From Burkholderiales bacterium (GTDB taxonomy: Bacteria > Pseudomonadota > Gammaproteobacteria > Burkholderiales > SG8-39), in NCBI GenBank assembly GCA_040902335.1, contig JBBDXL010000101.1:24579-88578 (forward strand): a DNA stretch of 64,000 nucleotides. The letters run 5' to 3'. This document shows positions 2,527 to 59,068 of the stretch, one piece after another (the first letter of the stretch is position 1; each line of letters opens with the position of its first letter). The notes under the pieces are model-generated. The model did no database searches and was not told the DNA's origin. It was given only the letters and a program-made list of their open reading frames with translations. The position numbers were made by a program, and so were the translations under genes.

Positions 2527-3924
2527 TCAGATCACCTTGGAGTATTCGGCGCGCGCTTCGCGCTCGCGCAGGTAGCGGTCGAACACCGCGCACACCACGC
2601 GCACCAGCAGCCGTCCCTTGGGCGTGACGATGATCCAGTCCGGCTGCAGCTCGACCAGCCCGTCGGCTTCGAGCCCGCGCAGGTCCTTCATCTCCGCGGC
2701 GAAGTAGGCGTCGAAGTCGAGCAGGTGCGCGAGCTCCACCGACTCCTTGGCGACGCGGAAATGGCAGCTGAGCGCCTGGATCACGGCGCGGCGCACGAGA
2801 TCGTCCTGCGTCAGCTCCAAGCCGCGCGCCACCGGCAGGCGCCCCGCGTCGAGCGCGGCGTAGTGGTCGTCGAGGCGCTTCTGGTTCTGATAGTAGGTCG
2901 GGCCGATGGCGCCGATCGCCGAGACGCCCAGGCCGATCAGGTCGCTGCCGCGGCGCGTGGAATAGCCCTGGAAGTTGCGCTGCAGGCGACCCTGCGCCTG
3001 GGCGATCGCGAGCTCGTCGTCGGGCCGCGCGAAATGGTCCATGCCGATGTAAAGATAGCCGGCGCGCGTCAGGCGGCCGATGGCGAGCGAGAGGATCTGC
3101 AGCTTCATTTCCGCCGCCGGCAGGTCGGCCTCGGCGATCCGCCGCTGCGGCTTGAACACCTTGGGCAAGTGCGCGTAGCTGTAGAGCGCGATGCGGTCCG
3201 GGTCGAGCGCGACCACCTGGTCGAGCGTGCGGCTGAAGCCGTCCAGGGTCTGCTTGGGCAGGCCGTAGATGAGGTCCAGGTTCACCGAGCCGAAGCCCGC
3301 CGCGCGCGCTTCCCCCACCACGCGGCGCGTTTCCTCTTCGCTCTGGATGCGGTGCACCGCCTTCTGCACCTGGGCGTCGAAGTCCTGGACGCCGAGGGAA
3401 ACGCGGTTGAAGCCCAGCCCGGCGAGGAACGCCATCGTGCCGGGAGCGACGCGGCGCGGGTCCACCTCGATCGAGCATTCGCAGTCGGGCGCGCGCTCGA
3501 AGCGCCGGCAGATCGACTGCATCAGGCTCTGCATTTCCTCGCGCGCGAGGAAAGTGGGCGTGCCGCCGCCCCAATGCAGCTGGCCGATCGCGCGGTTGGC
3601 GCCGAGCGAGGGCTCCAGCGACGCCAGTTCCTTCTCCAAGTACTTGATATACTTGGCCGATCTCAAGCGGTCGCGCGTCACCACCTTGTTGCACGCGCAG
3701 TAGTAGCAGAGCGTGTCGCAAAATGGCAGGTGCACGTAGAGCGAGAGCGGCTGGCTGACGCCGCCGATATTGCGCTTGCCGAGCCACTGCCGCAGCTCGG
3801 CCTCGCCGAACGCCTCGACGAAGCGGTCCGCGGTTGGGTACGAGGTGTAGCGCGGCCCGCTTACGTCGTACTGGCGGATGAGGACCGGGTCGATGACGAG
3901 GTCGGAGGCGGGGTAGCGCTGCAT
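2527..3924 (-). CDS. hemN: oxygen-independent coproporphyrinogen III oxidase (radical SAM)
   Basis: ORF 2527..3969. GPRYTSYPTADRF, radical-SAM cluster motif CDTLCYYCACN, and full-length similarity to HemN. I prefer ATG 3924 (MQRYPASDLVIDPVLIRQYD) because the longer start at 3969 lies inside the FNR box. Confidence 0.95.
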   Translation of the reverse strand: MQRYPASDLVIDPVLIRQYDVSGPRYTSYPTADRFVEAFGEAELRQWLGKRNIGGVSQPLSLYVHLPFCDTLCYYCACNKVVTRDRLRSAKYIKYLEKELASLEPSLGANRAIGQLHWGGGTPTFLAREEMQSLMQSICRRFERAPDCECSIEVDPRRVAPGTMAFLAGLGFNRVSLGVQDFDAQVQKAVHRIQSEEETRRVVGEARAAGFGSVNLDLIYGLPKQTLDGFSRTLDQVVALDPDRIALYSYAHLPKVFKPQRRIAEADLPAAEMKLQILSLAIGRLTRAGYLYIGMDHFARPDDELAIAQAQGRLQRNFQGYSTRRGSDLIGLGVSAIGAIGPTYYQNQKRLDDHYAALDAGRLPVARGLELTQDDLVRRAVIQALSCHFRVAKESVELAHLLDFDAYFAAEMKDLRGLEADGLVELQPDWIIVTPKGRLLVRVVCAVFDRYLREREARAEYSKVI

Positions 3925-3959
3925 TGCCGCCCAATATGGGCTTGCGAGGGAATAACGGC

Positions 3960-3973
3960 TTGATTTCAATCAA
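3960..3973. promoter_or_regulatory. FNR-type box TTGATTTCAATCAA (perfect consensus)
   Basis: Palindrome in the hemN / kinase divergent gap. The centre at 3966.5 is 42.5 bp from the hemN ATG 3924. Confidence 0.8.
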
Positions 3974-3998
3974 ACCCGGGCTGTTTCGCCATCCCGCG

Positions 3999-5246
3999 GT
4001 GATCGCCGCCGGGGGGGCGGCGCTCGCCGCGCTGCTGATCATGAACGGCGCCGCGTTCATCCGCGGCATGGACTCCCCCTGGCTGCTGGGCGCAGTCATC
4101 CTCACCGACCTGGCGGTGGTCGGCGTGAGCCTGGTCGCGGCGCTCTGGTCGATCGCGGTCTGGGGCGGGCGCAAGGACGTGAGCGAAGCGCGCCTGGACG
4201 CCATCGTCGACTCGGCGATGGACGCCATCCTCACCGTGGACGCGGCGCAGAACGTCGTGCTGTTCAACCGCGCCGCCGAGCAGATGTTCGGCGTGCGCCG
4301 CGACGACGCCCTCGGCTCGCCGCTCGACCGCTTCATTCCGCAACGCTTCCGCGGCGCGCACCGCGCGCACGTCGAGAAGTTCGGCCACACCGGCGTCACC
4401 AGCCGGCGCATGGGCGACCAGACGACTCTGTGGGCGCTGCGCGCCGACGGCAGCGAGTTCCCCATCGAGGCCTCGATCTCGCAGGCGGGCGAGCCGGGCA
4501 GCCGCTTCTTCACCGTGATCCTGCGCGATATCACGCTCCGCAAGCAGAACGAGGACACGATGCTCCGGCAGCAGCAGGAGCTGCGCGAGCTTTCGGCGCG
4601 CGTGCTGGAGGCGCGCGAGGAGGAAAAGACGCGCATCGCGCGCGAGCTGCACGACGAGCTGGGGCAGCTGCTCACGGCGCTCAAGATGGACCTCGCCTGG
4701 CTGCGCGAGCGCCTGCCCGAGACCGGGCCCGAGCTCGCGGCGCGCGCCGACGGCATGAGCGCGCTCCTCGACCGCACCGTGAGCTCGAGCCGGCGCATCG
4801 CCGCGGACCTGCGGCCGCTGATGCTCGACGACCTCGGGCTCGCCGAGGCGGCGCAATGGCTGGTGGAGGATTTCGCCAAGCGCTCCGCGATCCGGGTCGA
4901 GATGCAGGCGCCCGAAGACCTCGCGCTGGAGGCACTGTCCAAGGGTGCCGCCACGGCGCTGTACCGCGCGCTGCAGGAATCGCTCACCAACATCGCCCGC
5001 CATTCCGGGGCGAAAAGCGCCTGGATCGTGCTGGCGCAGGACAACGGCACGCTGCACCTGGAGATCGAGGACGACGGGCGCGGCATCGCCGCCGAGGACC
5101 TCGCGAAGGCGAGCTCGCTCGGCCTGAAGGGCATGCGCGAGCGCATCGCCTACTACGGCGGCTCGCTGGAAGTGGCGCGCGCGCCGCGCGGCGGCACGCG
5201 GCTGCGCGTGCGCATGCCGCTCCCCTCCGGCGGTGCCGAGGCATGA
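3999..5246 (+). CDS. PAS-domain sensor histidine kinase (HisKA_3 / NarX-DegS type)
   Basis: ORF 3924..5246. One or two N-terminal TM segments, a PAS region (DAIVDSAMDAILTVDAAQNVVLFNRAAEQMFG), an H-box (ELHDELGQLLTAL) and HATPase motifs (DDGRGI, GLKGMRER). The start is uncertain: GTG 3999, ATG 4041 or ATG 4068. ATG 3924 would abut the hemN start. Confidence 0.88.
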   Translation: MIAAGGAALAALLIMNGAAFIRGMDSPWLLGAVILTDLAVVGVSLVAALWSIAVWGGRKDVSEARLDAIVDSAMDAILTVDAAQNVVLFNRAAEQMFGVRRDDALGSPLDRFIPQRFRGAHRAHVEKFGHTGVTSRRMGDQTTLWALRADGSEFPIEASISQAGEPGSRFFTVILRDITLRKQNEDTMLRQQQELRELSARVLEAREEEKTRIARELHDELGQLLTALKMDLAWLRERLPETGPELAARADGMSALLDRTVSSSRRIAADLRPLMLDDLGLAEAAQWLVEDFAKRSAIRVEMQAPEDLALEALSKGAATALYRALQESLTNIARHSGAKSAWIVLAQDNGTLHLEIEDDGRGIAAEDLAKASSLGLKGMRERIAYYGGSLEVARAPRGGTRLRVRMPLPSGGAEA

Positions 5247-5866: not shown

Positions 5867-5934
5867 GACTTTTCCGAGCCGCGAATCAGCCGCCGCCGAT
5901 GGCCGGCGCCGCGGCGCGCCGCCACACTGGCGGC

Positions 5935-6312
5935 ATGCAAACGCGCACCGTCTATCTCGTAGAGGACTCGCCCCTGGTGAGCGAGCGCCTGCTCGAGATG
6001 CTCGAGGACGTGCCCGGCGTGCGCGTGACGGGCCACACCACACGCGCCGACGACGCGATCCGCGACATCCTCGCCGGGCGTCCCGACGTCGTGGTGCTCG
6101 ACATCCGGCTCGCGCAGGGCAGCGGCTTCGATGTGCTGCGTGCGCTGCACGATCAGGCGCCCGAGATCGAGGTCTACATGCTCTCCAGCTTCGCCTCCGA
6201 TCCGTACCGGCACCTCGCCGCGCGGCTCGGGGCGCGCGGCTTCTTCGACAAGGCCACCGAATTCACCCGCGTGCGCGACGCCGTCGCCGCGCGCGCCGCG
6301 CTCACGCACTGA
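5935..6312 (+). CDS. single-domain response regulator (CheY-like receiver only)
   Basis: C-terminal 125 aa of ORF 5233..6312, from ATG 5935: MQTRTVYLVEDSPLVSERLLEML...DVVVLDIRLAQGSGFDVLRAL. Confidence 0.85.
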   Translation: MQTRTVYLVEDSPLVSERLLEMLEDVPGVRVTGHTTRADDAIRDILAGRPDVVVLDIRLAQGSGFDVLRALHDQAPEIEVYMLSSFASDPYRHLAARLGARGFFDKATEFTRVRDAVAARAALTH

Positions 6313-6329
6313 AGAAAAGAGAGGACGCC

Positions 6330-7070
6330 ATGCACGCTGTCACCGCCATTCACGCCGCGCCCGCATCGAAGAAGTTCGAAGTCACCTGCTCGAGCTGCAA
6401 CCTGCGCGAGATGTGCCTGCCCGCCGGGCTGTGCGCCGAGGACCTCGAGCGCATCGAGAACGTGGTCTACGCGCGCCGGCGCCTGAAGCGCGGCGAGCCG
6501 CTGTTCAATGCCGGGGACAGCTTCAGCGCGGTGTACGCCATCCGCAGCGGCTTCTTCAAGACCAGCCTGCTCGACCCCGACGGGCGCGAGCAAGTCACCG
6601 GCTTCTTCATGGGCGGGGAGCTGCTCGGCATGGACGGCATCGGCGGCGCGCACCACGGCACCGCCATCGCGCTCGAGGACAGCGAGGTGTGCGTGCTGCC
6701 CTACGCGCTGATCGAGGACCTGTCGCGCGAGATCCCGGCGCTGCAGCGCCAGCTGCACGCGGTGCTGGCGCGCGAGATCGCGCGCGACCACGGCGTGATG
6801 ATGCTGCTCGGCTCGATGCGCGCCGAGGAGCGCCTGGCGACGTTCCTGCTCAACCTGTCCAGGCGCTTCGTGCGCCGCGGCTACTCCTCGACCGAGTTCC
6901 ACCTGCGCATGACGCGCGACGAGATCGGCAGCTACCTCGGCCTGAAGCTGGAGACGGTGAGCCGGCTGTTCTCCGCGTTCCAGAAGGACGGCCTGATCGA
7001 GGTGCAGCAGAAGCACGTGCGCATCCGCGAAATCGAGGGCCTGGAGCGGGTGCTCGCGACGCGGCACTGA
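6330..7070 (+). CDS. fnr: FNR (Crp/Fnr family, [4Fe-4S] oxygen-sensing transcription factor)
   Basis: 246 aa. N-terminal CSSCNLREMC aligns with E. coli FNR C20/C23/C29 and DSEVCVLPY with C122. The recognition helix ETVSRLF matches E. coli ETISRLL. An AAGAGAGGA Shine-Dalgarno sequence lies upstream. Confidence 0.95.
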   Translation: MHAVTAIHAAPASKKFEVTCSSCNLREMCLPAGLCAEDLERIENVVYARRRLKRGEPLFNAGDSFSAVYAIRSGFFKTSLLDPDGREQVTGFFMGGELLGMDGIGGAHHGTAIALEDSEVCVLPYALIEDLSREIPALQRQLHAVLAREIARDHGVMMLLGSMRAEERLATFLLNLSRRFVRRGYSSTEFHLRMTRDEIGSYLGLKLETVSRLFSAFQKDGLIEVQQKHVRIREIEGLERVLATRH

Positions 7071-11020: not shown

Positions 11021-11023
11021 GAG

Positions 11024-15808: not shown

Positions 15809-16953
15809 CACAGATTCTCCGGTTCCTGCAGCAGGGCCGCGAGCGCGGCGAGGAAGCGCGCGCCGCGATGGCCGTCGCTCGCGCGATGGTCGCCGCCGAG
15901 GCTCGCGACCACCGCCGGCACGGCACCGATCATGCCATCTTCGGCCCAGGGGCGAGGCGCGACCCGGCCGAAGCCCACGATCGCCACCTGCGGCGGGAAG
16001 ATGATGGCAAACACTTCATCTACGCCCTGGTCGCCCAGGTTGGTTACGGTGATCGTGGGATCGCTCATTTCGGAGGAGCGCAGCGAGCCCGCGCGCGCGC
16101 GGCGCACGAGGTCGGCGAGTGCCTTCATCAGCTCGTCGAGGCTGCGTTCGGCCACATCGTGGATCGCGGGCGCGATGAGCCCGCCCTGCCTGAGCGAAAT
16201 CGCGATGCCGATATGGATGCCCTGCGCCGGCTCGAAGGCATCGTCCTTCCAGAAGCCGTTGAGATCGGGAAAATCCTTCAGCGCGCGCGCCACCGCCTTC
16301 AGCTGCAGCGCGCCCATCAGCAGCCTCTCGGTGACCGGCCGCTTCTCGTTGTACGTCGTGAGCCAGTCCTGCGCGCGCTGCATCGGGACCAACTGGGACA
16401 GGTAGTAGTGCGGGATCTCGCGCTTGGAGCGGCTCATCGCCGCGGCGATGGCTTTGCGCATCGCAAGCGCCTTGTCGGACGGCGGTGCCGCGGCGGGCGC
16501 GGGCGCCGGCTTTGCCCCGCCCTTCGCCGCTTTCTCCACATCCTCCACGGTCACCGCGCCGTGCGGCCCGCTGCCGGCGAGCGTCTCCACGTCTACACCC
16601 AGCTCGCGCCCATGCTTGCGCGCGGCGGGGGAGACGGGATGCCGTGACGGTGCCGGTGCCGGCGTCGGTGCCGGTGCGGCCGCCGGCGCAGCGGCAGGCG
16701 CTGCAGCAGGCGCCTCGCCGGCGGCGGCGAGCCGCGCCATGACTGTTTCCACCGGAATCGTCTCGCCCGGCTTCGTGATCAGCTCCTGCACCACGCCGTC
16801 CTGCCAGATCTCGACGTCCACGGCGGCCTTGGGCGTCTCCACCACGGCCACCACGTCGCCGCGCTTCACCGCGTCGCCCGGCTTCACCTTCCATTCGATC
16901 AGCTTGCCCTCGTCCATGTCGGCGCCGAGGGAGGGGAGCTTGAATTCGATCAT
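15808..16953 (-). CDS. 2-oxoacid dehydrogenase E2 (dihydrolipoamide acyltransferase) with one lipoyl domain
   Basis: Lipoyl domain (VVAVVETPKAAVDVE), Ala/Pro linker, E3/E1-binding domain (SPAARKHGRELGVDVETLAGSGPHG), and catalytic DHRASDG. Start is ATG 16953 (MIEFKLP, GAGG upstream) or TTG 16962. Confidence 0.9.
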   Translation of the reverse strand: MIEFKLPSLGADMDEGKLIEWKVKPGDAVKRGDVVAVVETPKAAVDVEIWQDGVVQELITKPGETIPVETVMARLAAAGEAPAAAPAAAPAAAPAPTPAPAPSRHPVSPAARKHGRELGVDVETLAGSGPHGAVTVEDVEKAAKGGAKPAPAPAAAPPSDKALAMRKAIAAAMSRSKREIPHYYLSQLVPMQRAQDWLTTYNEKRPVTERLLMGALQLKAVARALKDFPDLNGFWKDDAFEPAQGIHIGIAISLRQGGLIAPAIHDVAERSLDELMKALADLVRRARAGSLRSSEMSDPTITVTNLGDQGVDEVFAIIFPPQVAIVGFGRVAPRPWAEDGMIGAVPAVVASLGGDHRASDGHRGARFLAALAALLQEPENL

Positions 16954-17000
16954 GGCGGTCAACCTCAGGGGCTATGGTGCGTTGCACGCCTGCGCCGGAC

Positions 17001-17014
17001 TTGACCTGGATCAA
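17001..17014. promoter_or_regulatory. FNR-type box TTGACCTGGATCAA
   Basis: Perfect TTGAY-N4-RTCAA. The centre at 17007.5 is 54.5 bp upstream of the E2 ATG 16953, which allows a leader carrying a Shine-Dalgarno sequence. Confidence 0.7.
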
Positions 17015-17099
17015 CTGCGGGGCAAGCCCCGGGTGGGACGCGACGTCGTTTCTGGTGCTCTACAATTCGAACCGCAACGCGACAAAGAACCAGACGCAG

Positions 17100-18689
17100 A
17101 TGCCTCGGCGCACTACCGACAAGAAAAAGCGACGGAAACTTCGGACGTACTCCCGCTCGACCGTCCAAAAACGGAGGCCGTCGCGCGCGCGCCAACTTCG
17201 ACAGGAAGTCGCGTCCTACGCCGTTGGTCGCGATCGGTTCGTCGATACCGTCGGCGACCAGTACAGTGCGCTTCATTCCCCGGCGACGCGCAGGAGAAGG
17301 GGCATCACGTTCACGCCGCCCGAGTTGGTCGAGCAGATGGTGGCGCTTGCACAACGAGGCGGCGTCGACATCAAGCGCATCGTTGATCCAGGTGCGGGAA
17401 CGGGGCGCTTCACAATTGCCGCCGCGCGAGCTTTCCCTGCCGCATCGATCGTGGCGATCGAGTACGACCGCGTGCTGGCCAGTCTGTTGCTGGGCAACCT
17501 CACCGCCGCGGGGCTCGGTGACCGGGTCCAAGTACACGTGGCGGATTTTCGCGCGGCGATGTTGCCGCGCATCGAAGGCGCAACGCTCTTCATTGGAAAT
17601 CCGCCCTACGTGCGGCATCACGACATCGAGTCGTCGTGGAAGCAGTGGTACTCATCCCGGCTGGCGTCGAGGGGCATTCGCGGGAGCCAGCTCGCCGGCC
17701 TGCATGCCCACTTCATGGTGAAGACGTTCGACCTGGCGCAGGAAGGCGATCTCGTCTGCTATGTGACCTCCGCTGAATGGCTCGACACCCACTACGGGTC
17801 GGCGCTGAGAGCGCTCTTGCTCGCCGCGGCCCGCGACATCGACATTGTGCTGTTGGATCGCGCATCACCCGCGTTCGCGGACGCAATGACCACGTCGGCC
17901 GTCTTGTCGTACCGCCACTTGCGGGGCGCATCGTCGGTGAACCTAAGGCTGATCGCCTCGATTCGAGAGTTGTCGAGCGTCCCTGCATCTGCAGGGGTCC
18001 GAAAGCGGGACCTTTCTCATTTTGATGCATGGAGCAGATTCGCAACCGCTGGTCCCACAGCGGATGTCGGTTCTGCCGCGAGGTTGGGCGATCTATTCTC
18101 GGTTCATCGGGGTCAGGTCACGGGAAACAACATGATCTGGGTCGAGGGCCGGTATCCAGGACTGCTTCCTGATCAGGTCCTCTTCCCCACCGTCACGCGA
18201 GCCAGAGATTTGCTCGATCTCGGATCGGACCGCCTGCTCGAAGTAACGACCCTGAAGCGGGTTGTCGATCTCCCTGCAGATTGGTCGCGAAGCGCGGATC
18301 TCGAGGCCGGGCAGATCCGGAGATTCATCGACTGGGCCGGCAAGCATGGCGGGCGCGACAGCTATATCGCGCGGCACCGCAAACCATGGTTCAAGGTGGG
18401 CCTGCGCGAACCGGCGCCCATCATCATGACCTACATGGCGCGCAGGTCGCCCAGGTTCGTCCGCAATCTGTGCGGAGCCCGCTTGATCAATATTGCCCAT
18501 GGCCTGTATCCGAGAGAACCGATTCCCGCGACCGATCTCGATCTCATCACGAAGTGGCTGAACGCGAACGTGTCGCGCGACGGCGGCCGCACGTATTCCG
18601 GGGGCCTGACGAAGTTCGAGCCCAGGGAAGTCGAAAGACTTCACTTACCGGTGCTTGAAGAGTTACGGACCCCAGGAACTGCCTCGTGA
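17100..18689 (+). CDS. N6-adenine DNA methyltransferase, gamma class (Eco57I/TaqI-like), type II RM
   Basis: ORF 16974..18689. Motif I VDPGAGTGRF comes about 90 aa before motif IV GNPPYV. A TaqI-like C-terminal specificity region follows. The likely start is ATG 17100 (MPRRTTDKKKRR). Local GC is about 60% versus about 72% in the flanks. Confidence 0.85.
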   Translation: MPRRTTDKKKRRKLRTYSRSTVQKRRPSRARQLRQEVASYAVGRDRFVDTVGDQYSALHSPATRRRRGITFTPPELVEQMVALAQRGGVDIKRIVDPGAGTGRFTIAAARAFPAASIVAIEYDRVLASLLLGNLTAAGLGDRVQVHVADFRAAMLPRIEGATLFIGNPPYVRHHDIESSWKQWYSSRLASRGIRGSQLAGLHAHFMVKTFDLAQEGDLVCYVTSAEWLDTHYGSALRALLLAAARDIDIVLLDRASPAFADAMTTSAVLSYRHLRGASSVNLRLIASIRELSSVPASAGVRKRDLSHFDAWSRFATAGPTADVGSAARLGDLFSVHRGQVTGNNMIWVEGRYPGLLPDQVLFPTVTRARDLLDLGSDRLLEVTTLKRVVDLPADWSRSADLEAGQIRRFIDWAGKHGGRDSYIARHRKPWFKVGLREPAPIIMTYMARRSPRFVRNLCGARLINIAHGLYPREPIPATDLDLITKWLNANVSRDGGRTYSGGLTKFEPREVERLHLPVLEELRTPGTAS

Positions 18690-21737: not shown

Positions 21738-23452
<1,715 letters not shown>

Positions 23453-23488
23453 CAAGCGCCCTGCCGACCTGCCCGCAACAATCCTGCA

Positions 23489-24016
23489 ATGGCCGAGTAC
23501 CCGCTGCACCTCGTGCGCCGGCGCACGCTCGCCGACGGCCGCACCGTGACCATCCGCCCGATCCGCGCCGAGGACGAGATGCCCACGCGCGACTTCTTCG
23601 AGCACCTGTCCGCGGAATCGCGGCAGATGCGCTTCATGAAGTTCGTAAGATCGGTCTCCGACAAGCTGATCCACTTCTTCACGCACGTCGACTACGAAAA
23701 GCACATGGCGTTCGTGTGCGAGGCCGAGCTCGAGGGCCGGCCGACGCTGGTGGGCGAGGCGCGCTACGTCGGCAACCCCGACGGCCGCAGCTGCGAGTTC
23801 GGCGTGGTGATCGCGGACGACTGGCGCCACAGCGGCATCGCCGGGCTGCTGATGGACGCGCTGATCCGCGCCGCGCGCGCCAACGGCATGGAGACCATGG
23901 AGGGTCTGGTGCTGCGCGAGAACCGCGAGATGATGAAGTTCGTGCGCGCGCTCGGCTTCGAGGCGACGGCCGATCCGGTAGAGTCCACCCTGATGCGAGC
24001 GGTGAAGAAGCTTTGA
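23489..24016 (+). CDS. GNAT N-acetyltransferase resembling the catalytic domain of Pat-type protein lysine acetyltransferases
   Basis: 175 aa: [31 protein letters not shown]...[30 protein letters not shown]. Confidence 0.8.
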
Positions 24017-30564: not shown

Positions 30565-30597
30565 GCGGGCACCCTAGGGCGGGGACGGAAGCGCGGT

Positions 30598-30611
30598 TTG
30601 ACGCAAGTCAA
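30598..30611. promoter_or_regulatory. FNR-type box TTGACGCAAGTCAA
   Basis: The centre at 30604.5 is 40.5 bp from the NAPRTase ATG 30564. TAGGGT lies at -12 to -7. Confidence 0.75.
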
Positions 30612-32508: not shown

Positions 32509-34212
32509 CTAGCCAGTCGGCCGCGCCAGCCAGCGCCTCACCTCCCCAAGCGGCCGCGCGTTGAGGACATCGCTATTCTCCAGCCACCCGCGCCGCGCCT
32601 GCCCCACTCCGTACCGCAGCACGTCGAACCCGTCCACCCCGTGCGCGTCCGAGCCGATGCTGACCAGCACGCCCTCGTCCTTGGCCATGCGGCAATGCAC
32701 GTCGTTCAGATCGAGCCGGTCGGGTTGCGCGTTCAATTCCAGCGCCACGCCCAGGCGCTTCGCCTTGCGCATCACCGCGAGCATGTCGAGCTCATACGCT
32801 TCGCGCTCGCCAATCAGCCGCCCCGTGGGGTGCGCGAGGATGGATACGTGCGGGTTGCACAGCGCCTTGAGAACGCGCGCGGTCTGCCGCGCGCGCGACA
32901 GGCCGAAACCGCCGTGCACCGCCGCAACCACCAAGTCGAGCTTCGCCAAAACGGAGTCCGGAAGGTCGAGACCGCCGTCCTCCAGGATGTCCACCTCGAT
33001 GCCCTTCAGCACTGTGATGCCGCGCAGATCCCGGTTCACGTCGTCGATTTCCGCGATCTGCTTTTCCAGGCGCCGCGGATCGAGCCCGTGCGCCATCGCC
33101 AGGCGCCGCGAATGGTCGGTGACGGCGAAGTACTCGAAGCCGCGCGAATGCGCCGCGAGCGCCATCTCGCGCACGGTGTTGCGCCCGTCGGTGGCGCTGG
33201 TGTGCGCGTGCAGGTCGCCGCGCAGGTCGGCAAGCGCCACCAGGCGTGGCAGCGCGCCGCGGCGCGCCGCCTCGAGCTCGCCCTGGTTCTCGCGCAGCTC
33301 CGGCTCGATGTAGGGCAGCCCGACCGCGGCGTAGACGGATTCCTCGGTCTTCCCCGCGACGCGCTTCTCGCCCCGCCACACCCCGTACTCGTTGATCTTC
33401 AGCCCGCGCGCGATGCCGAGCTTGCGCACCGCGATGTTGTGCGCCTTCGAGCCGGTGAAGTAATGCAGCGCCGCGCCGTAGCTCTCGCGCGGCACGACGC
33501 GCAGGTCGGCCTGGATGCCCGAGGCGAGCCGCACGCTGGAGCGCGTCGTGCCCTGGGCGAGGACTTCACGCACCTCAGGGTACTCGACGAAACGTGCGCT
33601 CACCTTTTCCGGCTGGTCGGAGACGACGAGGAAATCCAGGTCGCCGACCGTGTCCTTCCTCCTGCGGTAGCTTCCCGCGACCACCGCGCCCAGGTACTTC
33701 GCCAGCGGCTCGGCGTACTGCGCCGCGAGGGCGAGCTTGAAGCGCCGCGGCGCGGCGAGCTGCGCTTGCGCGGCGTCGACGATGCGCTGCGCCGTCTTCT
33801 CGCCGAACCCCGGCAGGGCGGGAAGCTTCCCCGCGCGCGCGGCGCGCCGCAGGTCTTCCAATGAGCCGATGCGGGCTGCGCGCAAGGCGCGCACGCGCTT
33901 CGGCCCGAGCCCGGGCAGCGCAAGCAGCGCGGTGATGCCGGCGGGGAACCTGCGGCGCAGCTGCGCGAGCAGCTTGCAGCTGCCGGTGGCCGCGATCTCG
34001 TGGATCTTGCCGTCGAGGTCCGCGCCGATTCCCGGGAGCTTGGGCAGCGCGGCGCCCTCGGCGAGCGTTGCGGCGAGGTCCAGGCTCAGGCCGCCCACCA
34101 CGCGCGCCGCGTTGCGGTAGGCGCGCACGCGGAACGGGTTCTCGTCGCCGAGCTCGAGCAGGTCGGCTATCTCCTCGAAGGCGGCGGCGATGTCCGCGTT
34201 GTGCACCGGCAT
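32509..34212 (-). CDS. polX: family X DNA polymerase with C-terminal PHP phosphoesterase domain
   Basis: 567 aa. HhH motifs (LPGIGADLDGKI, LPGLGPKRV), nucleotidyltransferase GSYRRRKDTVGDLDFLV, and PHP domain DLHAHTSATDG...AVTDHS...GSDAH. Confidence 0.9.
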   Translation of the reverse strand: MPVHNADIAAAFEEIADLLELGDENPFRVRAYRNAARVVGGLSLDLAATLAEGAALPKLPGIGADLDGKIHEIAATGSCKLLAQLRRRFPAGITALLALPGLGPKRVRALRAARIGSLEDLRRAARAGKLPALPGFGEKTAQRIVDAAQAQLAAPRRFKLALAAQYAEPLAKYLGAVVAGSYRRRKDTVGDLDFLVVSDQPEKVSARFVEYPEVREVLAQGTTRSSVRLASGIQADLRVVPRESYGAALHYFTGSKAHNIAVRKLGIARGLKINEYGVWRGEKRVAGKTEESVYAAVGLPYIEPELRENQGELEAARRGALPRLVALADLRGDLHAHTSATDGRNTVREMALAAHSRGFEYFAVTDHSRRLAMAHGLDPRRLEKQIAEIDDVNRDLRGITVLKGIEVDILEDGGLDLPDSVLAKLDLVVAAVHGGFGLSRARQTARVLKALCNPHVSILAHPTGRLIGEREAYELDMLAVMRKAKRLGVALELNAQPDRLDLNDVHCRMAKDEGVLVSIGSDAHGVDGFDVLRYGVGQARRGWLENSDVLNARPLGEVRRWLARPTG

Positions 34213-34247
34213 GGAAGCTCAGCGTGGCGCGGCGGCGCGGCGGCGTC

Positions 34248-34261
34248 TTGACCGGGATCAA
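34248..34261. promoter_or_regulatory. FNR-type box TTGACCGGGATCAA shared by divergent genes
   Basis: Centre at 34254.5. The polX ATG 34212 is at -42.5. ATG 34295 is at +40.5, with TAGCCT at -12 to -7. Confidence 0.75.
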
Positions 34262-34294
34262 ACCGGCCTGCCGGCGGCGCGCTAGCCTGCCTTC

Positions 34295-34612
34295 ATGAAA
34301 GCGATCGCGAAGCACGTCTTCCACCGCTGCGGCCGCGCGGTGAGCCGGCTCGTCGAGGCCGGTCTCGCACCTCGCCCGGAAATGCCGACAAGCGAGGCCG
34401 AGGTGCACGAATGGTGGCTGGTGTCGGCGCCGCTCGGCGCAAAGCTGCGCGAGCGCGGCGCGCCGGTGCTGGAGTTCTGCGAGCTCTCGATGTGGGGCCG
34501 CGCGGAAACCGGCAGCCCGCTGGAGAAGGACGCCGACCTCGCGGCGGCCCTCAGTGATCTTCGAGCCGCGGCACGCCCTCTTCGGCGGGCCCCCCGGTCT
34601 CGGAGTCGATGA
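34295..34612 (+). CDS. hypothetical protein
   Basis: 105 aa with no recognisable motif. Its 3' end overlaps the convergent ORF 34551..34832 by 62 nt. It is supported mainly by its position relative to box F. Confidence 0.4.
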   Translation: MKAIAKHVFHRCGRAVSRLVEAGLAPRPEMPTSEAEVHEWWLVSAPLGAKLRERGAPVLEFCELSMWGRAETGSPLEKDADLAAALSDLRAAARPLRRAPRSRSR

Positions 34613-34848: not shown

Positions 34849-34862
34849 TTGATGGAGATCAA
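34849..34862. promoter_or_regulatory. FNR-type box TTGATGGAGATCAA (perfect consensus)
   Basis: The centre at 34855.5 is 40.5 bp from ATG 34896 on the plus strand. It is only 23.5 bp from ATG 34832 on the minus strand. Confidence 0.75.
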
Positions 34863-34895
34863 TCCGCCAGCCCGCAAGCATGAAAATCTGGCGCC

Positions 34896-35057
34896 ATGGC
34901 CTTGGAGCGCTTCCACCGCAGGGTGATCGCGGGCGCGTTGGGCGCGTTCGGCGTCGTGCTCATGCTCGCCGCGCCCGACACGCTCGCCGGGCTGGCGGTG
35001 CTCGCGCTCGCGGTGGCGATCGAAGTCGCGGGCATTCTGATCGAGCGCCGGCGCTAG
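34896..35057 (+). CDS. small two-TM membrane protein (53 aa; not in the ORF track)
   Basis: My own translation: MALERFHRRVIAGALGAFGVVLMLAAPDTLAGLAVLALAVAIEVAGILIERRR, ending at TAG 35055..35057. Its ATG is 40.5 bp from box G. The track ORF 34880..35254 has a junk N-terminus in another frame. Confidence 0.4.
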   Translation: MALERFHRRVIAGALGAFGVVLMLAAPDTLAGLAVLALAVAIEVAGILIERRR

Positions 35058-35254: not shown

Positions 35255-36141
35255 ACCCCGCCGCCCTTCTCGCCGGCGACGCGCACCCGCAGCTCGCGCA
35301 GGACATCGCGCGCGAAGCCGGGTTGCCGCTCCTGCCCGCGCAGATCTCCGCCTTCGCCGACGGCGAGACGCGCGTGAAGATCGACGCCGACGTGCAGGGC
35401 GTTCACCTCGGCATCGTGCAGCCGACCCCGGCGCCCGTGGGCGAGCGGCTGGTCACGCTCGCGCTCCTCGCCGACGCCGCGCGCGCCGCGGGGGCGGCGA
35501 GCGTCACCGCGCTCATGCCCTACTTCGGCTTCGCGCGCCAGGACGTGCGCGGCGCGAGCGGCGAGCCGCGCTCGGCGCAGCTCGCCGCGCGCCTGCTCGC
35601 CGCCGCGGGCATCGAGCGCGTGGTGGTGCTCGAGCTGCACTCGAGCGCGCTGGAGAGCGCTTTTCCGATGCCCGTCACGCAGTTGCGCGCCGACGATGCC
35701 GTGCTGCCGCTGCTGCACGGGCGCGGCTACACGCTGGTCTCGCCCGACGCGGGCGGCATGAAGCGCGCGCAGCGCTACGCGATGGCGCTCGGCGCGCCGC
35801 TCGCCGCGGTCGCCAAGCAGCGCACCGGCGTCGACGCCGCGGTGCCGCTGCAAGTGCTGGGCGAGGTGCGCGGCGCCTCCTGCCTGCTGGTCGACGACAT
35901 GGCGAGCACCGGCCGCACGCTCGCGGGCGCGGCGCAGGCGCTCGCCGCCGCGGGCGCGTCCGAGGTGCACGCGTTCTTCGTGCACGCGGTGATGGCGCCG
36001 GGCGCGCTCGAGCGCATCCGCGCGGCGGGCGTGCGCCGCATTCTGACCACCGACAGCGTGCGCCCCGTGACCGACCCGGGGGTCGAAGGGGTGCCGGTGG
36101 CGCCGCTGTTCGCGGCCGCACTGCGCGCCGGCTTGCGCTAG
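35251..36141 (+). CDS. ribose-phosphate pyrophosphokinase (PRPP synthetase) family protein
   Basis: 296 aa. FADGETRVKI, MPYFGFARQD, LVSPDAGGMKRA, LLVDDMASTGRTL. The ATG overlaps the upstream stop (ATGA). Confidence 0.85.
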   Translation: MNPAALLAGDAHPQLAQDIAREAGLPLLPAQISAFADGETRVKIDADVQGVHLGIVQPTPAPVGERLVTLALLADAARAAGAASVTALMPYFGFARQDVRGASGEPRSAQLAARLLAAAGIERVVVLELHSSALESAFPMPVTQLRADDAVLPLLHGRGYTLVSPDAGGMKRAQRYAMALGAPLAAVAKQRTGVDAAVPLQVLGEVRGASCLLVDDMASTGRTLAGAAQALAAAGASEVHAFFVHAVMAPGALERIRAAGVRRILTTDSVRPVTDPGVEGVPVAPLFAAALRAGLR

Positions 36142-36146
36142 ATCAA
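36133..36146. promoter_or_regulatory. imperfect FNR-type box TTGCGCTAGATCAA
   Basis: The left half-site has two mismatches. The centre at 36139.5 is 40.5 bp from ATG 36180, with AAGAAT at -12 to -7. The box overlaps the stop of the Prs-like gene. Confidence 0.5.
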
Positions 36147-36179
36147 GAAGGCGGGAGCCTCGCGGGCAAGAATGCTGTC

Positions 36180-36833
36180 ATGAGCAGGATCTTCGACTCC
36201 CGCCTCGACGCCGCCCGGCGCCTCGCGCAGGCGCTCGGCGCCTACAAGGGCCGCAACCCGCTGGTGCTCGCCATCCCGCGCGGCGCGGTCGCCATGGGCG
36301 CCGAAATCGCGCGGCTGCTGGAGGGCGAGCTCGACGTGGTGCTGGTGAAGAAGCTGCACGCGCCGGGCAGCCCCGAGTTCGCCGTCGGCGCCGTGGACGA
36401 AAGCGGCTGGACCTATGTCGCCGGCTACGCGGCCTCGGCGGGCGCGGACCAGGCCTATCTCGCGCGCGAGAAGGACGCGGAGCTCGCGCTCCTGCGCCGC
36501 CGCCGCGCGCAGTACACCCCCGCGCGCGCGCCGGCGGATCCCGCGGGCCGCGTGGCGATCGTGGTGGACGACGGCATCGCCACCGGCGCGAGCATGATCG
36601 CCGCATTGCACGCGGTGCGCGCCAAGAAGCCCGCGCGCCTGGTGTGCGCCGTGCCGGTCGCGCCGGCCGACAGCCTGGAGCAGATCCGGCCCTACGCCGA
36701 CGAGCTCGTCTGCCTGGAGACGCCCGAGGGCTTCATGGCCGTGGGCCAGTTCTACCGCCACTTCGAGCAGGTCGAGGACGACGAGGTGGTCGCGCTGCTC
36801 GCGCGCCATGGCAAACGCACCGCCGCCGCCTGA
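36180..36833 (+). CDS. type I phosphoribosyltransferase-fold protein
   Basis: 217 aa. The PRPP-binding loop is VAIVVDDGIATGASM. Confidence 0.85.
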   Translation: MSRIFDSRLDAARRLAQALGAYKGRNPLVLAIPRGAVAMGAEIARLLEGELDVVLVKKLHAPGSPEFAVGAVDESGWTYVAGYAASAGADQAYLAREKDAELALLRRRRAQYTPARAPADPAGRVAIVVDDGIATGASMIAALHAVRAKKPARLVCAVPVAPADSLEQIRPYADELVCLETPEGFMAVGQFYRHFEQVEDDEVVALLARHGKRTAAA

Positions 36834-40111: not shown

Positions 40112-41210
40112 GCTCCTCCGCGACCGACTCGATCTCGCGGCGGAACGTGGCGTTCACCTGCTCATAGCGGCGCTGCGCGAGCGCGTCGTCGTACACGCTG
40201 ATCACCTCGACGTCGTAGTAGGAGCGCAGCCCGCCGTTGAACTCGACCGCCATCTCGGCGGTGGACCCGGGCGGGCCTTCGATCCGGTATTCCGGAATGA
40301 TCGGGAACAGGCCGCGCTCCACGGCGATCCGCTGGCCGCGATCGGAGAGCAGGAATTCGACGAAGGCGCGCGCGGCCCTGGGGTGCCTGGCGCCCTTGAG
40401 GATCGCCGCCGGCCCGGCGGTGATCCATGCGGTCTTCGGGGCGACGTACCTGATGTCGAACCCGGCCAGGCGATCCTCGAAAGCGAAATAGCTCGGCACG
40501 GCGAAGCCCACGGCGAATTCGCCCCGCGCCACGACCGCCGGGACGTCGCGGCTGCGGGGAGCGAAGAACCCGGTATTCGCCGCCAGACGCCGCGCCCATT
40601 CCCAGCCCTTCGCCTCGCCGTCGCGCTGCAGGATGACCTCGTACGCCGCGTGGCTGCTCGACGAACGCGTCGGCGGCGCCTGCGCGATGTTGCCCTTGAG
40701 CCGCGGGTCCAGGAGATCGTCCCAGTCCCGCGGCGGCGGCACGCCGAGGCGTTGCAGCAGCCGCGGGTGATAGACGATGCCGGTGGATTCGAGCACGGTG
40801 CCGACCCAGAAGCCCTCGGGGTCCTTGAGCAGGATCGGCTTGGGCCTGCCGAGCTTCTCCGGGATCGCCGCCGTCACCGCCCCGGGCAACTCGAGCGGTG
40901 CAAGCAGGTTCTGCGACGCGAGCCGGTCATAGAGCGCGCTCTCGCCGCCCCAGAAAAGATCCGCCTGCGGCCGCCCGCTCCATTCGACGATGCGGCCGTA
41001 GGCGAGCGGCGTGCCGGCGGACAGCGCGCTCGTCCTGACGTCGACGTTCCACCGCTGCTTCGCGTGCTTCCTGAACTCGGCCAGCGCGGGGTCGGAAAAG
41101 CTCTTCCCCACCGGCGTGATGAGGACGAGCTCGTCCTCGATGGGCGGCGCCGCGGCGAGCCCCGGCGTGACGAGCATCGCGGCGAGCGCCGCTGCGGCGA
41201 CGACGCGCAT
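40095..41210 (-). CDS. ABC-transporter periplasmic substrate-binding protein (Fe3+/polyamine-type fold), orphan paralog
   Basis: Roughly three-quarters identical by eye to the SBP at 49823..50926 (LVLITPV...WNV.V.T.AL.AGTP.AYGRIVEW.GRP.AD.FWGGESAL). Start is ATG 41210 (MRVVAAAALAAML, signal peptide) or ATG 41219. Confidence 0.85.
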   Translation of the reverse strand: MRVVAAAALAAMLVTPGLAAAPPIEDELVLITPVGKSFSDPALAEFRKHAKQRWNVDVRTSALSAGTPLAYGRIVEWSGRPQADLFWGGESALYDRLASQNLLAPLELPGAVTAAIPEKLGRPKPILLKDPEGFWVGTVLESTGIVYHPRLLQRLGVPPPRDWDDLLDPRLKGNIAQAPPTRSSSSHAAYEVILQRDGEAKGWEWARRLAANTGFFAPRSRDVPAVVARGEFAVGFAVPSYFAFEDRLAGFDIRYVAPKTAWITAGPAAILKGARHPRAARAFVEFLLSDRGQRIAVERGLFPIIPEYRIEGPPGSTAEMAVEFNGGLRSYYDVEVISVYDDALAQRRYEQVNATFRREIESVAEELKRKY

Positions 41211-41244
41211 GAAACGCATGCTGGCGCGCGCGCTGCGGGCCGGC

Positions 41245-41258
41245 TTGACGCAGATCAA
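41245..41258. promoter_or_regulatory. FNR-type box TTGACGCAGATCAA shared by divergent genes
   Basis: Centre at 41251.5. ATG 41210 is at -41.5 on the minus strand and ATG 41292 is at +40.5 on the plus strand. Confidence 0.75.
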
Positions 41259-41291
41259 CAACGGACGCCATGGCGATGGCCCAATGCAGGC

Positions 41292-41615
41292 ATGACCTCC
41301 GCCGACCCGAAGCTCATCGACGCCGTATGGCGGCACGGGCGCGCCATGCCCGGCGCCGACCCCGCGCACTGGCGCCAGGATGCCTGCGGCGCCTGGATGC
41401 GGCGCGAGCAGTGCGGCCACGAGCAAGCCGAGTTCGGCTGGAAGCTGGAGAAGGTGTCCGCCGGCGGCCCCGACAGCGCCGAGAACCTGCGGCCCTTCCA
41501 CCGCAGCAACGGCTACGACGTCGCCAACGGCCAATCACACTGCGCAGTCACCGCCGATCGCTCCAATCTTCCGGCGGAGAAATACGCGATGCCGCCGCGC
41601 AACCGCCCGGCCTAG
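41292..41615 (+). CDS. small HNH-like protein with a degenerate catalytic motif
   Basis: 107 aa: ...DACGAWMRREQCGHEQAEFGWKLEKVSAGGPDSAENLRPFHRSNGYD. It has the layout of short HNH nucleases (GWEIDH...GG.D...NL.PLH..N), but EK replaces the DH dyad. Confidence 0.5.
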   Translation: MTSADPKLIDAVWRHGRAMPGADPAHWRQDACGAWMRREQCGHEQAEFGWKLEKVSAGGPDSAENLRPFHRSNGYDVANGQSHCAVTADRSNLPAEKYAMPPRNRPA

Positions 41616-41626: not shown

Positions 41627-41640
41627 TTGACTTACGTCAA
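41627..41640. promoter_or_regulatory. FNR-type box TTGACTTACGTCAA
   Basis: The centre at 41633.5 is 67.5 bp upstream of ATG 41701, which has an AGGAG Shine-Dalgarno sequence. Confidence 0.7.
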
Positions 41641-41700
41641 AGGGGGCGGCGCGGCGCGGCGGCATGCTTGGCGCGTCAGCCACCCAGGAGACCAAACGCC

Positions 41701-42249
41701 ATGCAACTCCCCGTGCAGATCACCTACCGCGGCATGGAAAGCTCCGCGGCCATCGAGGACGCGGTGCGCGACCGGGCCGCCAAGCTGGAGCAGTTCCATG
41801 CGCGCATCATGAGCTGCCGCGTGGTGATCGAGCAGCCCGCGCGCCACAAGACGAAGGGCAAGGAGTTCGTGGTGCACCTCGACCTCAAGGTGCCCGGCGG
41901 CGAGATCGCGGTGACCCGCGACCATCACGAGGACGTGTACGTCGCGCTGCGCGACGCGTTCGACGCCGCGCGCCGCAAGCTCGAGGACTTCGCGCGCGAG
42001 AGCCGCGGCGACGTCAAGCAGCACGAGCCCACGCAATCGGGCACCGTGGCGCGCATCCTGGCCGGGGAAGGCTACGGCTTCATCGCCACCGCCGACGGCC
42101 GCGAGCTGTACTTCTCGCGCGAGAACGTGGTGACGCCGCCGTTCGAGCACCTCGCCGCGGGCACCGCGGTGCATTTCATCGAGGAAGCGGCCGCCGAAGG
42201 CCCGCAGGCGAAGCGCGTCAGCGCGCGCCACGGCGCGGCGGGCGGCTGA
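41701..42249 (+). CDS. HPF/RaiA (S30AE) ribosome-hibernation domain fused to a cold-shock (CSD/OB) domain
   Basis: N-terminal part: MQLPVQITYRGMESSAAIEDAVRDRAAKLEQF...VVHLDLKVPGGEIAV...DVYVALRDAFDAARRKLEDF. C-terminal part: GTVARILAGEGYGFIATADGRELYFSRENVV (RNP1-like GYGFI). Confidence 0.8.
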   Translation: MQLPVQITYRGMESSAAIEDAVRDRAAKLEQFHARIMSCRVVIEQPARHKTKGKEFVVHLDLKVPGGEIAVTRDHHEDVYVALRDAFDAARRKLEDFARESRGDVKQHEPTQSGTVARILAGEGYGFIATADGRELYFSRENVVTPPFEHLAAGTAVHFIEEAAAEGPQAKRVSARHGAAGG

Positions 42250-57542: not shown

Positions 57543-57563
57543 TTCTACCGGCCCGGCGCGACC

Positions 57564-58394: not shown

Positions 58395-58445
58395 CGTTCT
58401 CTCCAGGTTCCTGCGGCCATCATGCCCGACGCGCTCCTGCGGGGA

Positions 58446-58459
58446 TTGACTTAGGTCAA
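58446..58459. promoter_or_regulatory. FNR-type box TTGACTTAGGTCAA
   Basis: Centre at 58452.5. The USP ATG 58394 is at -58.5 and has a Shine-Dalgarno sequence. ATG 58493 is at +40.5, with TAGGCT at -12 to -7. Confidence 0.75.
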
Positions 58460-58492
58460 CCGGGCGCGGGCCGCGCTCGCTAGGCTCATCCC

Positions 58493-59068
58493 ATGCCGTG
58501 CGCGATGCGCTGTGCGTTGATCCTGGCGGCAGCCGCGCTTTGCGGCTGCCAGTCGCTGCTGCCGCGGGCGGACCTCGCCACGCAGCAGGCCTGGGGCGAC
58601 TTCGAGGAGGCGCGCGCGGCCATCGCGCGCATCGCGCCGAAGCAGACCACGCGCACCGAGCTGTCGGCCGCGGGCATCGATCCCCTGAAGAACGCCTCGG
58701 TCTCCATCCGAGGCCTGCCCGACGTCATGCAGCGCTTCACCGTGGGCACGGCGGTCGACGCGCAGGACCTCGACCCCGGCATTCGCGAGTGCCTGGCCGC
58801 AGGCAATGCCTGCACCGGCTACGCGATCCTCGTGCGACGCAGCGACCGCCGGAGGATCGGCAGCTTTTGGGCCGACATCTTCAACTTCCGCCGTGAAACC
58901 GACGTCACCGGCTGGACCTTCAACGCGCTGATCCTGTTCGTCGGCGACACCGTGGTGTACACGGTGCACGGCGGCCAGCCGCGCATCTACGAGAAGGAAG
59001 TGAGCCGCAACCCGCTCGGTCCGCTGCAAGGCCTGGGCGAGGCGGCGGGCTCGGCGCTCACGCGCTAG
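58493..59068 (+). CDS. putative lipoprotein of unknown function
   Basis: 191 aa. The signal peptide with a lipobox-like sequence is ALILAAAALCGCQ. The alternative start is ATG 58505. Confidence 0.6.
   Translation: MPCAMRCALILAAAALCGCQSLLPRADLATQQAWGDFEEARAAIARIAPKQTTRTELSAAGIDPLKNASVSIRGLPDVMQRFTVGTAVDAQDLDPGIRECLAAGNACTGYAILVRRSDRRRIGSFWADIFNFRRETDVTGWTFNALILFVGDTVVYTVHGGQPRIYEKEVSRNPLGPLQGLGEAAGSALTR

Follow-up and report, generated by a model that had tools for sequence, protein, structure and literature searches.

The island, its regulator and its FNR-type boxes

We consider here a stretch of 64,000 nucleotides of contig JBBDXL010000101.1 from a Burkholderiales bacterium (the window, always meant at its full length), in which palindromes of the FNR type lie at a nearly fixed distance from the start codons of a series of genes. 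The window has a GC content of ~70% and was placed, by a PolX-based retrieval, among metagenome-assembled genomes of uncultured Burkholderiales/Betaproteobacteria (best match 86% amino-acid identity), with Usitatibacter and Pelomicrobium as more distant PolX relatives. According to Pfam, the genes of this island encode HemN, PolX, an FtsH paralog and PspC, a ribosome hibernation factor in which an HPF (S30AE) domain is fused to a cold-shock domain (HPF-CSD), a DksA-like protein and a tandem universal stress protein (USP), the enzymes NAPRTase, PRPP synthetase and a phosphoribosyltransferase (PRTase), two acyl-CoA ligases and 2-oxoacid dehydrogenase subunits, RtcB with archease, a MazE-type antitoxin and solute-binding proteins.

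Among the 50 genes of the low-oxygen-activated (lxa) locus of Burkholderia cenocepacia, 17 TGA-N6-TCA motifs are reported (Sass et al. 2013, PMC3721108). Compared through the published tables, the window resembles this locus both in the density of its boxes (13-16 in 64 kb) and in the presence of USPs, a Zn-dependent FtsH-type protease, CRP/Anr regulators and two-component systems; when the Pfam domains were set against the lxa gene list, clustered boxes, USPs, an FtsH-type protease, an Anr-type regulator and a two-component system were all recovered. Judged by its genes, the window is a predicted lxa-like low-oxygen island, with a gene set of the hypoxia/dormancy type, of an uncultured Burkholderiales/betaproteobacterium.

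A regulatory module at 3999-7070(+) encodes a PAS-HisKA_3 kinase, a NarL/FixJ-type response regulator, a single-domain receiver and then an FNR/Anr-type regulator (6330..7070, plus strand; Pfam cNMP_binding and HTH_Crp_2/Crp), the gene of which is itself preceded by a Shine-Dalgarno (SD) sequence. This regulator has the C-X2-C-X5-C motif (CSSCNLREMC) together with a central cysteine in EVCVL, and the E--SR recognition helix is present as ETVSR, so that the window itself encodes the predicted cognate Fe-S activator of FNR/Anr type.

Exact TTGAY-N4-RTCAA boxes number 13 in the window, where 0.02 are expected, and 16 are found with one mismatch or fewer (1.1 expected). Both strands were read outward from every box, offsets being measured from the box centre to the first base of the start codon, and an ATG or GTG was found at 40.5-42.5 bp on 12 of the 26 box sides (binomial P ~1e-10), namely at 3924(-), 23407(-, GTG), 23489(+), 28816(-), 30564(-), 34212(-), 34295(+), 34896(+), 41210(-), 41292(+), 42592(+) and 58493(+). 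Control windows of 3 nt on the same 26 sides hold 0.99 start codons on average and 5 at most, and the 11 ATGs alone give a binomial P of 1.2e-10. The initial annotation, made from the letters of the window, had listed 13 genes at this distance: twelve are recovered at exact boxes with the same coordinates, and the last, 36180, lies 40.5 bp from a degenerate box (TTGCGCTAGATCAA, 36133-36146). Three boxes are each flanked by two divergent starts of this leaderless type, with start-to-start distances of 82, 83 and 82 bp.

On 18 of the 26 window sides, those of all leadered genes included, a -10-like hexamer begins 28.5-29.5 bp from the box centre. Of the 13 genes, 12 carry NANNNT separated from the start by 6-8 nt, the exception being 41292 (CCCAAT only); every hexamer given in the initial annotation is present at its position. 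The start codon is ATG in 12 of the 13 genes. The same annotation held that none of them has an SD sequence, and indeed none was found at -16 to -7 in any of the 13; this does not extend to the last bases before the start, as 28816 carries GAGG at -6 to -3, too near to the start codon to act as an SD sequence. The other boxed genes (16953, 28913, 41701, 42490, 50926 and 58394), here called leadered, have their boxes at 54.5-67.5 bp and a clear SD sequence, again as first described.

Promoter geometry and authenticity of the start codons

As relatives we used 80 PolX-centred loci (L001-L080), which cover 1.2 Mb and contain 119 boxes. Counting ATGs against box distance, without gene calling, gave a peak of 30, 18 and 13 at 40.5, 41.5 and 42.5 bp versus 1-7 at most other offsets. 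A secondary ATG peak at 32.5-33.5 bp (15 and 10) is probably due not to alternative starts but to -10 hexamers that end in CAT with a G after it. Starts called by coding potential have bimodal box-to-start distances, with 37 genes at 40.5-42.5 bp and a second group at 54-70 bp; the first group uses ATG in 92% of cases (58-69% in other gene classes), has an SD sequence in 16% and carries NANNNT at -14 to -12 in 70%, versus 0% at a control offset. The leaderless-type share, taken as the fraction of class II box promoters in which an ATG or GTG at 40.5-42.5 bp opens an ORF, amounts to 11/18 in the window, 24/45 in L001-L010, 16/65 in L011-L041 and 5/23 in L042-L080, or 37% overall, ~53-61% in the closest clade and ~22-25% in more distant clades. 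The arrangement is conserved in at least 10 families (polX, NAPRTase, PRTase, GNAT, acyl-CoA ligase, zinc-ribbon, hemN, orf34295, small membrane ORF and FtsH), and one and the same family can be leaderless-type or SD-led according to lineage (dksA, PRTase) while the box stays in the class II register.

The register of the -10 hexamer was examined on 264 box sides pooled from the window and the 80 related loci. TANNNT starts at 28.5 bp on 53 of them and at 29.5 bp on 13 (background 0-2), and NANNNT at 28.5 bp on 104 and at 29.5 bp on 51, that is on 155 of the 264 sides (background 3-12). Among the pooled box promoters TANNNT is separated from the start by 6 nt in 16 cases, by 7 nt in 5 and by another length in almost none; the pooled position matrix has A at -11 and T at -7. 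The idea that these promoters are copies of one mobile cassette was rejected, because the spacers between box and -10 hexamer are unrelated (38% identity versus 34% when shuffled).

An experimental calibration is available from the differential RNA sequencing map of B. cenocepacia J2315, which covers the lxa promoters BCAM0290, 0292, 0294, 0295, 0312 and 0317 (PMC4603805, Tables S3/S4). According to these tables, all six have the -10 hexamer at 28.5-29.5 bp and the transcription start site (TSS) at 40.5-41.5 bp from the box centre, offsets obtained after a 1-nt strand correction of the supplement coordinates by means of the shared BCAM0294/0295 box (39.5-41.5 bp uncorrected); the divergent BCAM0294 and BCAM0295 have one common box and TSSs 83 bp apart. 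Since the register in the window matches this calibrated one, and its divergent pairs measure 82, 83 and 82 bp, the ATGs sit where TSSs map in B. cenocepacia.

Class II CRP/FNR promoters of E. coli have their site at -41.5, and E. coli FNR targets have leaders with SD sequences; we know of no description of a natural regulon of leaderless FNR targets in that organism. The window promoters resemble the E. coli class II type in having the same palindrome, a site predicted to overlap the -35 region and one dimer that could serve divergent promoters, and El-Robh and Busby (2002) reportedly worked with synthetic divergent promoters with a single site.

The boxes might instead be no activator sites at all, acting as repressor operators or binding another CRP-family protein (Dnr/NnrR/FixK type) while transcription begins elsewhere; the TTGAT-N4-ATCAA box is indeed common to FNR, Anr, Dnr, NnrR and FixK, and two window boxes occupy positions foreign to class II, 23.5 bp from orf34832 and 34.5 bp from a thiamine pyrophosphate (TPP)-dependent enzyme. 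We consider this improbable, as the -10 register of 28.5-29.5 bp is exactly that of the mapped, low-oxygen-induced Anr-type lxa promoters, the divergent intergenic regions of 81-82 bp leave no space for other promoters, and the window has a gene for an FNR that carries both the Fe-S cysteines and the E--SR helix.

Whether the start codons are genuine was addressed with a start caller that uses codon log-odds alone, with no SD or promoter input, and this caller chose 3924, 23407, 23489, 30564, 34212, 34896, 36180, 41292 and 42592. In three further contigs fetched through the 41292 protein (L081-L083), database gene calls place 11 starts 39.5-42.5 bp from box centres, including FtsH and two more divergent pairs, and a call at 32.5 bp (L083 6987) is an artefact, since conservation of the ortholog N-termini starts at the ATG at 41.5 bp. 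The artefact arises where a -10 hexamer ending in CAT is followed by G, creating an ATG 8-9 nt before the real start and 32.5-33.5 bp from the box centre (23415, 41219 and L083 6987), which, when in frame, can mislead gene callers, as in this L083 call and in the alternative start of 41210.

Were the starts mis-assigned, with the true ones downstream, ordinary 5' untranslated regions (5'UTRs) would result; high GC content does produce long open frames, 58493 (ATG 58505) and 41210 have alternative in-frame starts, and three genes are without orthologs in the fetched loci. We nevertheless regard such an error as very improbable, because the ATG peak is sharp, at 5-10 times most other offsets, and in the pooled set 83 ATG or GTG codons open at least 50 in-frame codons. 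An in-frame stop precedes the starts of polX, NAPRTase, 34896 and 58493 by 6-12 nt. Conservation begins at the proposed codon in PolX (N-terminus MPVHNADIA conserved from codon 1 in ~75 of 80 orthologs), NAPRTase, PRTase and the acyl-CoA ligase, the window GTG of which aligns with the ATG of L007; orthologs start at the same residue for NAPRTase, PRTase, GNAT, the zinc-ribbon protein, hemN, orf34295 and the small membrane ORF, and the length of the 41292 product agrees with that of its homologs, mostly 103-108 aa among the 120 listed of 168 found. N-terminal conservation, stops, coding potential and database calls support a genuine start for at least 10 of the 13 genes.

We propose that each TTGAY-N4-RTCAA box would bind the activator in a class II promoter, in which the FNR dimer would replace the -35 element and a weak -10 hexamer (NANNNT) would start 28.5-29.5 bp from the box centre. 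RNA polymerase would initiate 6-8 nt past this hexamer, 40.5-42.5 bp from the centre, a position taken in 13 promoters by the first base of the start codon (A, and once G), and the transcripts would begin with AUG or at most 1-2 extra nucleotides and be translated independently of SD sequences, through direct binding of the ribosome to the 5'-terminal start codon. Three of the boxes would each drive two divergent leaderless genes. The leadered genes share the same geometry, which predicts leaders of 13-27 nt, just enough for an SD sequence, and they would thus differ from the others by this minimal leader on an unchanged promoter. Register, ATG peak, start calls and N-termini all agree in silico with the view of the initial annotation that the starts coincide with the predicted class II transcription start. 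From them we infer TSSs, FNR dependence and leaderless translation, and it appears probable that the majority of the 13 mRNAs have their 5' end no more than 2 nt from the start codon, as leaderless mRNAs from class II FNR promoters.

Several observations weigh against this reading. The -1 base is C in 65% of the leaderless candidates and in 53% of SD-led genes, which does not discriminate, and a pyrimidine at -1 was dropped as a leaderless marker. In hemN and polX the hexamer lies at 28.5 bp and the ATG at 42.5 bp, so that transcription may start 1-2 nt upstream of the ATG, and the hexamer of 41292 (CCCAAT) is poor. The starts of 41210, 58493 and 28816 are less secure, having alternative in-frame starts or being without ortholog support in the fetched loci. 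SD motifs, moreover, are scarce even at internal operon genes (22-38%), and a 4-mer criterion is positive before 22-47% of any gene class; with SD sequences scarce throughout the genome, their absence alone is weak evidence and does not discriminate.

The individual promoters and neighbouring features

Three boxes serve two divergent leaderless-type starts. The first unit (23405..23491, both strands; box 23442-23455; start-to-start 82 bp) joins an acyl-CoA ligase (GTG 23407, minus strand, 41.5 bp, -10 CAGCAT) to a GNAT gene (ATG 23489, plus strand, 40.5 bp, -10 AACAAT), and in L007 the orthologs of both genes lie at 40.5 bp, the offset in L008 being 39.5 bp. The second (34210..34297, both strands; box 34248-34261; 83 bp) joins PolX (ATG 34212, minus strand, 42.5 bp, -10 CACGCT, stop 6 nt upstream) to orf34295 (ATG 34295, plus strand, 40.5 bp, -10 TAGCCT); the polX box is found at 40.5-42.5 bp in L006, L010, L024, L026, L030 and L078, and the orf34295 orthologs start 42.5 bp (L006) and 40.5 bp (L010) from the box. 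The third (41208..41294, both strands; box 41245-41258; 82 bp) joins a solute-binding protein (ATG 41210, minus strand, 41.5 bp, -10 CAGCAT) to a conserved 107-aa protein, termed HNH-like in the initial annotation (ATG 41292, plus strand, 40.5 bp, weak -10 CCCAAT); an in-frame ATG 9 nt upstream of 41210 (41219) falls inside the -10 hexamer, CAGCAT being followed by G.

Four further genes are of the leaderless type. The hemN promoter (3922..3973, minus strand) has its box at 3960-3973, -10 CATATT at 3933-3938 and ATG 3924 at 42.5 bp, an offset also seen in the L029 ortholog; the coding sequence, 2527..3924(-), encodes Pfam Radical_SAM and HemN_C domains. The offset first reported for hemN stands, and the strand can now be given as minus, the plus-strand ORF listed there being the PAS histidine kinase. 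This kinase, with its start at GTG 3999 or ATG 4041, shares the hemN box and yet does not obey the 41.5 rule. The NAPRTase promoter (30562..30611, minus strand) has its box at 30598-30611, -10 TAGGGT at 30571-30576 and ATG 30564 at 40.5 bp, with an in-frame stop 9 nt upstream of the ATG and a box at 40.5-41.5 bp in L002, L003 and L005. The small membrane ORF promoter (34849..34898, plus strand) has its box at 34849-34862, -10 AAATCT/GAAAAT and ATG 34896 at 40.5 bp, and the distance is 39.5-40.5 bp in L002, L003 and L005 and 39.5 bp for a database gene call in L081. The PRTase promoter (36133..36182, plus strand) combines the degenerate box, which is kept in L003 and L005, with -10 AAGAAT at 36168-36173 and ATG 36180; in L003, L005 and L006 the box lies at 40.5 bp with GAGAAT, and Sulfuricaulis PRTase orthologs are SD-led with the box ~60 bp away.

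Three further boxes are shared by a leaderless-type and a leadered gene. Between 28814 and 28915 (both strands; box 28851-28864), a zinc-ribbon/NMD3-like gene of leaderless type (ATG 28816, minus strand, 41.5 bp, -10 TACCTT; 40.5 bp in L005) faces a DksA-like gene (ATG 28913, plus strand, 55.5 bp, -10 TAGGCT at 29.5 bp, SD AAGGAGG) with a predicted leader of ~14 nt, the offset of which is 54.5 bp in L005 and L008 but 41.5 bp, hence leaderless-type, in L013. Between 42488 and 42594 (both strands; box 42543-42556), the leaderless-type FtsH gene (ATG 42592, plus strand, 42.5 bp, -10 TAGTGT) faces the leadered orf42490 (ATG 42490, minus strand, 59.5 bp, -10 CATCGT, SD AGGGAG), and the L083 FtsH ortholog, which shares the N-terminus METRTRFNV, is called 41.5 bp from its box. 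Between 58392 and 58495 (both strands; box 58446-58459), a leaderless-type lipoprotein gene (ATG 58493, plus strand, 40.5 bp, -10 TAGGCT, stop 9 nt upstream) faces the leadered tandem-USP gene (ATG 58394, minus strand, 58.5 bp, -10 CATGAT, SD GGAGAG), and the USP orthologs have a box at 56.5-58.5 bp and an SD sequence.

The remaining leadered genes are the E2 acyltransferase gene (promoter 16951..17014, minus strand; box 17001-17014, -10 CACCAT at 28.5 bp, ATG 16953 at 54.5 bp, SD GAGG, predicted leader ~13 nt), the HPF-CSD gene (promoter 41627..41703, plus strand; box 41627-41640, -10 CATGCT at 29.5 bp, ATG 41701 at 67.5 bp, SD AGGAG, predicted leader ~26 nt; orthologs at 66.5 bp in L002, L004 and L008) and that of a second solute-binding protein (50924..50997, minus strand; one-mismatch box 50984-50997, ATG 50926 at 64.5 bp, SD AAGGGAG). 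For orf53250 (53248..53301, minus strand; box 53288-53301, ATG 53250 at 44.5 bp) an SD sequence had been proposed, but the motif is better read as the -10 hexamer GAGGAT, in register at 28.5 bp, which predicts a near-leaderless transcript with a leader of 3-4 nt.

Two boxes lie at a distance from a gene that does not fit class II. The TPP-dependent enzyme gene at 53329-54993(+) has TAGCAT 9 nt before its ATG and the centre of box 53288-53301 at 34.5 bp, so that the box overlaps the core promoter and suggests repression by FNR or independence from it, and not class II activation. A conserved 93-aa ORF, 34551-34832(-), has a box centre 23.5 bp from its ATG both here and in L008 (-10 TAAGAT, spacer 9), and the box is at 40.5-41.5 bp in L002, L003, L006 and L010; an apparent loss of ~18 bp would have turned a shared bidirectional box into one overlapping its core promoter.

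A candidate FNR-driven RNA is predicted at 52866..52997 on the minus strand (box 52984-52997, -10 CAGAAT at 29.5 bp; RNA 52866-52949), with a length of ~85 nt, a stem-loop exposing CCUCCUCC and a strong terminator made of a GC hairpin and U7 (minimum free energy -36.2 kcal/mol, z = -3.2). Its 3' end lies 1 nt upstream of the archease ATG (gene 52437-52865), and RtcB (51005-52435) follows. Rfam at gathering thresholds reports nothing in the window, and the sub-threshold matches of this RNA are ncS54, AniS (an FNR-induced sRNA of Neisseria), Betaproteobacteria toxic sRNA and CcsR1; the RNA may be an FNR-dependent sRNA or an attenuating leader of archease-rtcB.

An insert at 16970-19620 (GC 64%), with an NPPY-motif DNA methyltransferase ORF (16974/17098..18689) and a second ORF at 18686-19618, is probably a restriction-modification system; it separates the acyl-CoA ligase, E1 alpha and E1 beta genes from that of E2, which has its own FNR-box promoter. 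Within the island, the MazE-type antitoxin ORF 38890-39111(-) overlaps the downstream ORF 38483-38899, which is probably its toxin partner.

Probable leaderless mRNAs in the regulon and in the lineage

The initial annotation called the use of leaderless transcripts regulon-wide. Leaderless-type starts are indeed dense among the boxed genes, but leaderless-type promoters also occur in the window without FNR boxes, so that "regulon-wide" may really mean lineage-wide, and leaderless initiation could be a general habit of the promoters of this lineage, similar to "group C", which the FNR box only makes visible. Such promoters are found at 31820 (TTTCAC-17-TACCAT-6-ATG), 39233, 7130 and 57533, and at the FGGY kinase 60497(-) and GpsA 60515(+) genes, which have Pfam-verified N-termini, starts 17 bp apart and no FNR box, each -10-like hexamer lying 6 nt upstream and inside the other gene as face-to-face leaderless-type promoters. 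In many other betaproteobacteria, including Gallionella-type loci, polX has TACAAT or AATAAT 6 nt before its ATG and no box, and the predictions of GeneMarkS-2 assign 5.6% of proteobacterial genomes to the type with frequent leaderless mRNAs and 38% of Burkholderiales to the weak-signal group X (PMC6028130). On the other side, the TANNNT excess at spacer 6 before box-less first genes of the 1.2 Mb is small (13 versus ~6.5 background), that of the box promoters (16+5) stands over a background of ~0, and the leaderless-type share among class II box promoters is highest in the closest clade; this comparison is not decisive, as the sampling favours hypoxia islands, start calling is noisy and the numbers are small. 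We give a lineage-wide habit a chance slightly short of even. That the FNR hypoxia regulon of this clade has been specifically shaped towards leaderless mRNAs, including the 82-83 bp bidirectional one-dimer units, is a tentative proposal that we hold to be rather unlikely.

The proposed leaderless mRNAs from class II FNR promoters can be compared with several known systems. The lxa promoters share the position of the -10 hexamer, the 40.5-41.5 bp position (start codon here, TSS there) and the divergent pair on one box (83 bp), but the start codon occupies the TSS position in 13 of ~20 box promoters here, whereas lxa mRNAs have 5'UTRs of 21-114 nt (PMC4603805). Burkholderiales can express leaderless genes, as 72 genes of B. 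cenocepacia, mostly transcriptional regulators, have their TSS at the start codon (Sass 2015, PMC4603805), with a TA-rich -10 directly upstream; these are a small minority and include none of the mapped lxa promoters that we retrieved. The group C promoters of Actinobacteria and Deinococcus-Thermus resemble those of the window in the -10 located 6-8 nt before the start, the absence of an SD sequence, the strong preference for AUG and the restriction to operon-first genes (PMC6028130, which also cites the leaderless transcriptomes of M. tuberculosis and D. deserti), but they belong to other phyla and other regulators (e.g. DosR for hypoxia).

The islands of L081-L083 also carry PGA_cap, ribonucleotide reductase, HSP20, CBS-domain proteins and PEBP, and their genes, with NAPRTase and PRTase, recall the Rv0570-Rv0574c block of the mycobacterial DosR regulon. 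The analogy with DosR is functional only: its hypoxia-induced set likewise contains USPs, an S30AE/HPF factor and NAD salvage/PRTase genes, and its host makes leaderless mRNAs. DosR is a NarL-type response regulator, not an FNR, and has no fixed ruler from activator to start codon. RafH is the S30AE factor of the mycobacterial hypoxia set (PMC3390679), and work on mycobacteria ties hypoxia and S30AE-type ribosome stabilisation to speculation on leaderless translation, which motivates the idea of a shaped regulon without establishing it.

The searchable literature holds no description linking leaderless mRNAs with FNR, Anr, FixK or Dnr promoters, and no report in it contradicts the novelty first claimed for FNR regulons of proteobacteria; the one point of contact is the gonococcal FnrS transcript, which begins with AUG but was tested and found not to be a leaderless mRNA. 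For leaderless targets of Thermus SdrP/CRP, too, nothing was found in that literature. Textbooks describe both class II activation and leaderless translation, and what would be new is their combination in a proteobacterial stress regulon; one in which most activator-dependent promoters would emit leaderless mRNAs is undescribed in that literature.

A fixed ruler from box to ATG would make leaderless genes predictable from sequence in uncultured lineages, and it reveals systematic errors of gene callers, such as starts placed at the CAT-plus-G of the -10 hexamer; the 82-83 bp units would be compact natural bidirectional hypoxia promoters. If the regulon has been shaped in this way, activation upon oxygen loss would be coupled to SD-independent translation, e.g. 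by 70S ribosomes, while the co-regulated HPF-CSD puts ribosomes into hibernation, a proteobacterial convergence with mycobacterial dormancy. If leaderless use proves to be lineage-wide, heavy leaderless usage would still have been extended to a branch of the Burkholderiales. The arrangement offers the testable hypothesis that leaderless translation may be favoured in oxygen-limited dormancy outside the Actinobacteria.

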